From NCBI RefSeq assembly GCF_052425735.1, contig NC_135761.1:46686001-46750000 (forward strand): a DNA stretch of 64,000 nucleotides. The letters are read 5' to 3'. Shown here piece by piece: positions 10,125-10,378 of this stretch (positions within the stretch are counted from its first letter, which is position 1; the number at the start of each line of letters is the position of its first letter). This DNA comes from Oculina patagonica. Lineage: Eukaryota. The notes below the pieces were generated by a model. That model was not told the DNA's origin, made no database searches, and worked only from the letters and a program-made list of their open reading frames with translations. A program made the position numbers and the translations under genes.

Positions 10125-10378
10125 CAATCCTAGACAGAAGTCCTTGGGACACTTAATCAGCTTGAATGAAAACGTGTTTACAACCTATTCCTCGCTCAAT
10201 GATTAGTTAATTGTAAAACGTAAACAATCCCCCCTTCCCCCAATCAATGTTGCAACACAGGATTATTACATTTTAACGGAAAACAACATTGATGAGGGGG
10301 GAAGGGGATGGACTCACAAATTCAGTTACTTTTATCGGGAAAACTAGGTAGGTGTCCCATGCCTTTTGTCTAGGATTG
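10125..10378 (+). repeat. Left direct repeat (254 bp): MITE-like unit with TIRs and central stem-loop
   Basis: Ends are CAATCCTAGACAGAAGTCCTTGGGACAC / GTGTCCCATGCCTTTTGTCTAGGATTG with TA on both sides. Internal arms lie at 10227-10252 and 10284-10309. Confidence 0.95.
10261..10269 (+). promoter_or_regulatory. Putative rolling-circle origin nonanucleotide GATTATTAC (second copy 14339-14347)
   Basis: Matches the CRESS consensus NANTATTAC, sits in the loop of the stem-loop and is on the Rep-coding strand. The 31-nt loop is larger than canonical. Confidence 0.5.

Follow-up and report, generated by a model that had tools for sequence, protein, structure and literature searches.

A 4,337-bp element of the coral Oculina patagonica, at positions 10125-14461 of the window (the whole 64,000-nucleotide stretch of contig NC_135761.1 analysed here), consists of direct terminal modules enclosing a rep gene and a Tc1-type transposase gene. 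Amplification of one-module circles or concatemers is, in our view, the probable task of Rep, and insertion of module-bounded pieces at TA sites that of the transposase. The parts of the element are as follows.

10123..10124, no strand: left TA of the target-site duplication, from contig joins; C-TA...TA-G context, compare related families
10125..10378, + strand: left terminal module (254 bp), repeated directly by the right one; imperfect TIRs of ~28 bp
10227..10309, no strand: central inverted motif of the left module, a hairpin with arms at 10227-10252 and 10284-10309
10824..12162, + strand: rep gene, HUH + SF3, from the family alignment and the fold of a homologue
12226..12440, no strand: intergenic iteron block, repeats of ACAGTACTCGGC
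12789..13883, - strand: Tc1-type DD34E transposase gene (HTH + DDE_3), convergent with rep
14203..14461, + strand: right terminal module, 259 bp, with a longer G-run; hairpin at 14305-14392
14462..14463, no strand: right TA of the target-site duplication, from contig joins

A polymorphic insertion into TA

Contigs from runs X1 and X2 carry an empty allele with a single TA, joining 10122 to 14462 with two letters that fit either side. In run X1, the depth over the element body was 17 and that over the flanks 33-51, i.e. the insertion is heterozygous, and there was no excess depth. The empty-allele joins and the half-depth body together identify the complete 4,337-bp unit as a single polymorphic insertion into TA. 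Two runs presumed to be RNA yielded patchy contigs, to which we attach no weight either way.

Duplication of TA was also found elsewhere. A gene-less 1.9-kb relative lies inside a 162-bp satellite, 32 unoccupied copies of which read exactly C-TA-GCAAC; the occupied copy is flanked on both sides by TA, a change from TA to TA...TA. The outer ends of elements read C-TA...TA-G, and 13 of the 14 multi-module insertions of a family designated B are bounded by TA, the remaining one by CA/CA. The original prediction that the module bears transposase-type ends is therefore supported by its TIRs and by the TA duplications at the window copy, the satellite insertion and family B.

The window contains further repeats and genes. 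A piggyBac-like transposase ORF is present at 2-1048 (+) (Pfam DDE_Tnp_1_7, E 1.6e-59), three tandem units of ~1.18 kb at 3516-6600, a direct duplication of about 4.0 kb at 25167-33000 that includes a 124-bp inverted repeat pair and has no relation to the Rep element, and a 44-bp tandem array within a large inverted repeat at 57449-57932.

Rep and transposase

In the assembly, a frame change near 11415-11430 interrupts the window rep, and one in-frame stop (13371-13373) lies in the transposase gene. Rep displays HUH motifs I, II (HxH) and III (YxxxK-type) along with the SF3 Walker A and B motifs, motif C and an Arg finger, the HUH + SF3 combination of CRESS-type Reps. We identified 607 homologues, and 835 clusters at 50% identity with E<=1e-30; those with a named source include Porites, Acropora and Oculina, which agrees with a coral host, as do sequencing runs labelled 'coral metagenome'. 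The catalytic motifs are intact across the family: H73 and H75 (HxH), Y116 and K119 (catalytic Y/K), K305 (Walker A) and R412 (Arg finger) were invariant in 74/74 aligned homologues, chosen from 120 listed of the 607.

The predicted fold of a Rep homologue (pLDDT 93.5) gave AAV2 Rep68 as the best match (E 1e-13), followed by Rep40, SV40 T antigen, papillomavirus E1 and parvoviral NS1, at identities of 10-17%. In terms of predicted fold, Rep is nearest to parvoviral and papillomaviral proteins. An atlas search with Rep placed an unnamed, mostly cnidarian cluster on top and NS1 clusters lower. A PDB sequence search returned nothing below E 0.09, with weak matches to SIRV1 Rep and E1; a single-protein query of viral_contigs detected no relative, and the plasmids database gave no match. 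Concerning the transposase, Pfam HTH_Tnp_Tc3_2 and DDE_3 scored above cut-off, and the DD34E spacing was 34 in 12 of the 13 ORFs in which the pattern was called and 36 in one; it was not called in 6 ORFs.

Recurrence of the layout

A second family in the same genome (L057) has ~270-bp modules that are 98.9% identical to one another, and both of its ORFs are uninterrupted. Its proteins are 55-66% (Rep) and 52-63% (transposase) identical to those of the window. Among 80 metagenome Rep loci, kept from 178 confirmed, a transposase was present at 41, always on the strand opposite to rep. Only two of the 39 loci without a transposase (L127 and L149) extend >900 nt downstream; both have >2 kb downstream of rep with no transposase match, and L149 retains the module. 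Identities of Rep and transposase co-varied (rho 0.88, 0/2000 permutations) across 12 loci including two near-duplicate pairs, and the linkage persists down to about 38% identity, indicating a long-term pairing of the two genes. The layout is that of a lineage, and not an accident. An exception is L103, in which rep and transposase lie between inverted repeats of ~215-250 bp (228-476 and 4576-4786) rather than direct modules.

Capsid-like or consistent third ORFs were not found among 81 loci for which ORFs of >=120 aa were listed, the Pfam scan for this question covering four of the other ORFs and one flanking ORF. The capsid gene that characterizes CRESS DNA viruses and Parvoviridae was thus not found in these loci.

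Other arrangements were also noted. Loci L058-L066 of the same genome are tandem arrays of 3.6-5.2-kb units that retain the Rep C-terminal end and an iteron-type inverted repeat, sometimes with the transposase N-terminus; one of them (L063) amplifies the hairpin core as an 81-bp tandem. Contig C4 harbours a cluster of many decayed rep and transposase remnants at 31.6-47.3 Mb. An ORF with a deaminase domain (L164:245-1576) and one for a MACPF + Hint protein (L163:34-1941) were each found upstream of a rep.

The terminal module and its stem core

The original prediction had described a hairpin at 10227-10309, with two arms, a 31-nt loop containing GATTATTAC and a second copy at ~14305-14392. All of these are present, the arms at 10227-10252 and 10284-10309 and GATTATTAC at 10261-10269, and the duplication exceeds what was described, covering the entire 254/259-bp module with its ~28-bp TIRs and a TA on both sides. 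The two window modules are identical apart from one G-run. The arms are imperfect, with a perfect inner stem of 10 bp followed by bulged C/G runs; the left arm is made up of C-runs and CAATGTTG (10245-10252), the right arm of CAACATTG (10284-10291) and G-runs, and the 31-nt loop is family-specific.

Pattern counts were taken on the 529-Mb assembly that contains the window. CAATGTTG-N25-55-CAACATTG occurs at 1,232 sites, compared with 1 for the reversed control, an abundance far above chance. The conserved part comprises two C-runs, 3-4 variable bases and CAATGTTG, with the mirror image on the other arm. The hairpin was detected at 44 of the 80 metagenome Rep loci, with degenerate stems at two further loci; since the finder accepted no more than one mismatch in the core, the conservation of the core in part reflects the search itself. 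The variable outer stem bases pair above shuffled partners (62; 0/500), and five loci have a compensatory CAATGATG/CATCATTG pair. The inner loop positions pair no better than shuffles (62/500).

Module length across loci is ~145-306 bp. TIR and arm share a TTG/ATG-purine word; strict covariation of TIR type with arm type was not found, the ATG-type TIR accompanying both arm types. Inner module ends are mostly GA/TC (TC after the right TIR in 22 of 28 called metagenome modules), and are TA in the window's family and in family B. Solo modules bounded by TA were identified (L002, L006, L007 and L009), and on structure alone these are MITEs, i.e. short non-coding TIR elements with a target-site duplication. 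The solo module at L007:1501-1824 contains an internal fold-back duplication centred on a C-run, the kind of trace expected from template switching at the hairpin.

The loop nonamer

The original prediction placed a Rep nick at TATT^AC in the loop. When 51 Rep-linked hairpins were collapsed into 33 loop families, TATTAC was found in the Rep sense in only one family, the window's own, and antisense in two, with a shuffled expectation of 0.66 per strand. In the genome, TATTAC (window 10264-10269) occurs in 6 hairpins, four of them of the window's family, compared with the 1,232 stem sites; loops of 10-66 nt were used for the former and N25-55 for the latter, so one pattern is not strictly a subset of the other. 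At such frequencies the nonamer does not exceed chance, a caution that had accompanied the prediction itself, and it is not kept across families. Loops of Rep-linked families (18-73 nt) shared no motif above shuffle level except A/T-rich words, and the sister family L057, with its uninterrupted ORFs, is without TATTAC. The conserved stem-loop nonanucleotide of CRESS origins is therefore missing.

The expectation that TATTAC would be better kept than the rest of the loop held slightly within the window's family and failed across families. Among the five copies of the window's family, differences were found in 1 of 29 cells of TATTAC, 10 of 122 of the rest of the loop and 4 of 73 of the core, small counts that are too few to outweigh the cross-family result. 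One copy has a 4-nt insertion inside TATTAC and in another TATTAC is altered. A CRESS-type origin nicked at TATT^AC would agree with these few differences, and with the fit of the loop to NANTATTAC on the Rep-sense strand in the window's family. With the nonamer in 1/33 Rep-linked families and 6/1,232 hairpins, absent from L057 and disrupted or altered in two copies of its own family, we rule out TATTAC as a conserved nick site; a nick there is almost certainly not what occurs. The prediction was wrong on the nonamer and right in suspecting a junction of two systems.

An iteron block between the genes

A second cis element lies between the 3' ends of the two genes. In the window, ACAGTACTCGGC occurs at 12226-12237 (+), 12369-12380 (+) and 12429-12440 (-), a 143-bp spacing followed by an inverted one; the right outer copy of this block was not recognised. 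The iterons of different families are specific to each, with the form AC[AG]G[TG]NN[AT]C. This motif was enriched (185 vs 76), a figure that is partly circular because the motif was derived by eye from the same loci. The central inverted pair is 51-87 nt apart in 18 of 32 loci, and of 24 spacings to the nearest outer iteron, 15 measure 140-146 bp. Both conserved cis elements, module and iteron block, are retained in the gene-less families A, B and C, and families B and C have the same 143-144-bp geometry.

Iteron distance tracked Rep (partial correlation 0.29, 0/1000) more than the DNA-binding domain of the transposase (0.12, 95/1000) in 23 loci, and TIR distance tracked the latter domain (0.28, 18/1000) more than Rep (0.12, 228/1000) in 14 loci; TIRs tracked the Rep helicase as well (0.37, 11/1000), and all of these partial correlations are confounded by phylogeny. 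Rep residue 109 and iteron position 3 matched in 22 of 23 loci. The block is a second candidate origin, located between the genes.

Identical ends, solo modules and arrays

The original prediction had likened solo copies of the module to solo LTRs. The analogy holds in that the module flanks the rep and Tc1 genes, occurs solo, and is near-identical at the two ends of an element. In family A (9 loci), modules of the same element differ by 1.1 substitutions and those of different elements by 5.9-6.3, and at 16 sites the minor allele is on both ends. In family B (13 loci, one locus having been dropped as its first module was not called), the corresponding values are 0.23 and ~3.0. Left-left, right-right and left-right distances are equal, and there is no left or right lineage. 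Under plain cut-and-paste, the left and right ends would form lineages that diverge independently; hence the ends are reset from one template.

The module is seen as solos, in monomers and in TA-bounded arrays that reach 14 units. The 80 exact loop matches of family B are distributed over 5 arrays of 3-15 modules, 13 pairs, 18 singles and 2 short-contig neighbours; among five singles fetched, two were solos, two had a body edge and one was not resolved. One array contains six identical units. Few pairs of units in the 14-unit array are as close as its first and last (2 substitutions, compared with a mean of 13), which is what linearisation of a circle would produce. The same array is mosaic (163/351 four-gamete pairs), with diffuse recombination and no hot spot, and the haplotype at its edge is 1-3 substitutions away from that of a monomer at another place. 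Loci seldom recombine with one another (18/1596). Import from other loci was considered as the source of shared array alleles; this is weakened, as they may be ancestral states. Terminal overlap, i.e. circular permutation, was observed in 7 of 80 metagenome contigs. We do not take these contigs as evidence of episomes, because a short-read assembly graph yields them from direct-repeat monomers.

A possible cycle and its alternatives

We infer a circle of one module and the body, which would form by recombination between modules or by Rep release. In such a circle, rep and the transposase gene would diverge from the module, which would separate their 5' ends, and their 3' ends would face each other across the iteron block; the circle would be ambisense, with the transposase in place of a capsid gene. 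Rep probably binds the family-specific iterons. In Rep families, nick sequences are invariant and iterons vary. The putative nick may lie in the invariant module core or, nearly as probably, in the iteron block. Excision from a dimer or longer concatemer would give M-(body-M)n with identical ends, and solos would arise by recombination or by single-module excision. Several observations count against this circle model. GA/TC inner ends could hinder excision from a concatemer, and the mosaic 14-unit array is not expected from a single rolling-circle run. There is also no extra depth at the window copy, L103 has inverted repeats, and L127 and L149 have no detectable transposase. The wider proposal, a capsid-less ambisense circular replicon with a parvovirus-like Rep, a spaced iteron origin and a Tc1 transposase replacing the capsid, integrating as module-bounded monomers or concatemers, is in our view evenly poised.

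The arrays could instead grow on the chromosome in a KolobokP-like manner, Rep nicking or unwinding an integrated copy to bring about local re-replication or unequal crossover, and the transposase later moving module-bounded pieces. A free replicating circle would then be unnecessary. The spectrum of solos, monomers and multimers matches that in the excerpts of the KolobokP report (PMC9587614). The old array, mosaic and with an edge haplotype so close to a monomer elsewhere, fits this reading, as do GA inner ends, which would favour excision at outer ends; identical ends also arise by excision from a fresh array. On the other hand, a full replicative helicase and a spaced iteron block exceed the needs of a cutter, and the outermost units of the long array form one of its closest pairs. 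Such growth in place seems to us rather unlikely; it yields identical ends and arrays just as the circle model does, and only free circles distinguish the two.

Far less probable is a composite Tc1 transposon of the ordinary kind, in which Rep is carried along passively and gene conversion homogenises the ends. The central inverted motif would then be a pair of inner transposase sites (IR/DR-type) or host-factor sites, which would agree with the word shared by TIR and arm, with the shuffle-level pairing of the inner loop positions, which makes the motif resemble a pair of binding sites more than one long hairpin, and with the resemblance that we presume between the arm and an HMG-box site and between the G-runs and GC boxes. 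This reading may be right about what binds the stem, but invariant Rep catalytic residues, a Rep-transposase linkage reaching down to about 38% identity, gene-less derivatives that keep the iteron block, and an ATG-type TIR found with both arm types all argue against it. Even more doubtful is an integrated helper-dependent or multipartite ssDNA virus-like agent with its capsid supplied in trans. Rep is nearest to parvoviral NS1 in predicted fold and features and the two-gene layout is ambisense, but the 81 loci contain no capsid-like or consistent third ORF, the single-protein query of viral_contigs gave no relative, and the TA duplications indicate a transposase.

Comparison with known systems

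LTR retrotransposons have identical direct ends at each insertion, solos and tandem arrays; the coral element differs from them in that no reverse transcriptase lies inside and the ends carry TIRs. With Tc1/mariner elements it shares an HTH + DD34E transposase and the TA duplication, but instead of a single ORF within one TIR pair it has two genes, four TIRs and two direct modules.

Replitrons and Helitrons (Craig 2023, PMC10288648) are, in the excerpts of that paper, also eukaryotic transposons with an HUH Rep and hairpins near their ends. There the HUH protein is the transposase, the helicase is not SF3 (none, or SF1B) and target-site duplications are generally absent, whereas the coral element has a separate DDE enzyme and TA duplication. 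AAV Rep68 and parvoviral NS1 share the HUH+SF3 fold and, in the excerpted text of PMC2944168, act via a binding element and a nick site; the coral element differs in its 10-17% identity, its lack of a capsid and of terminal hairpin telomeres, and its DDE-type integration marks. DENSOV_HM, PIVE and an acorn-worm parvovirus-like repeat bring Reps resembling parvoviral NS1 or papillomaviral E1 into invertebrates including a hydrozoan, a likeness to the coral Rep that we base on description and not on sequence; in the excerpts of PMC3198968 no transposase is described for them, and the acorn-worm element has a capsid ORF. In the same excerpts (Liu et al. 2011), a geminivirus-like transposon of Tuber melanosporum combines Rep-like and transposase ORFs with TIRs in one element. 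That element has a geminivirus-type Rep, 37-bp TIRs only and no obvious target-site duplication, constitutes one fungal family, and is not reported there with direct terminal modules or arrays.

A description of this element, or of the pairing of a parvovirus-like Rep with Tc1, was not found in the literature searched, with Repbase/Dfam, subscription journals and supplements lying outside that search; its families may have been entered in Repbase/Dfam as Mariner or MITE consensus records. The text of bioRxiv 10.1101/2024.03.25.586562 is without 'transposase', 'coral' or 'Tc1', and the excerpted PMC13565253 mentions only KolobokP in this connection. KolobokP is the closest known element, similar in architecture and different in enzymes. 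In the excerpts of Kojima & Bao 2022 (PMC9587614), its internal region is bounded by long terminal direct repeats that each bear TIRs, the repeat is common to solos, monomers and multimers, and a DDE transposase accompanies a second nuclease in about 4-4.7 kb. The direct repeats with TIRs, the solos and the multimers are all found in the coral element. KolobokP has a Kolobok transposase, a His-Me finger homing nuclease, 3-5-bp target-site duplications and ~450/660-bp repeats, and the excerpted host table is without Cnidaria; the coral element has a Tc1 DD34E transposase, TA duplication, ~145-306-bp modules and an HUH+SF3 initiator with iterons.

The element joins cut-and-paste transposons to parvovirus-type replication proteins in a stable, widespread and coral-associated form. 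It accounts for at least 1,232 'MITE' and satellite-like repeats in the genome as parts of one system, and provides a new HUH-SF3 family with natural protein/iteron pairs for specificity studies. A capsid-less replicon, if true and its circles confirmed, would be a new class of eukaryotic mobile element, and more than a thousand modules of a single coral genome would have come from a DNA-only route to LTR-like ends. For the question that KolobokP poses, by what means the two direct ends of a DNA transposon stay identical and multimers arise, the coral element offers a testable answer.
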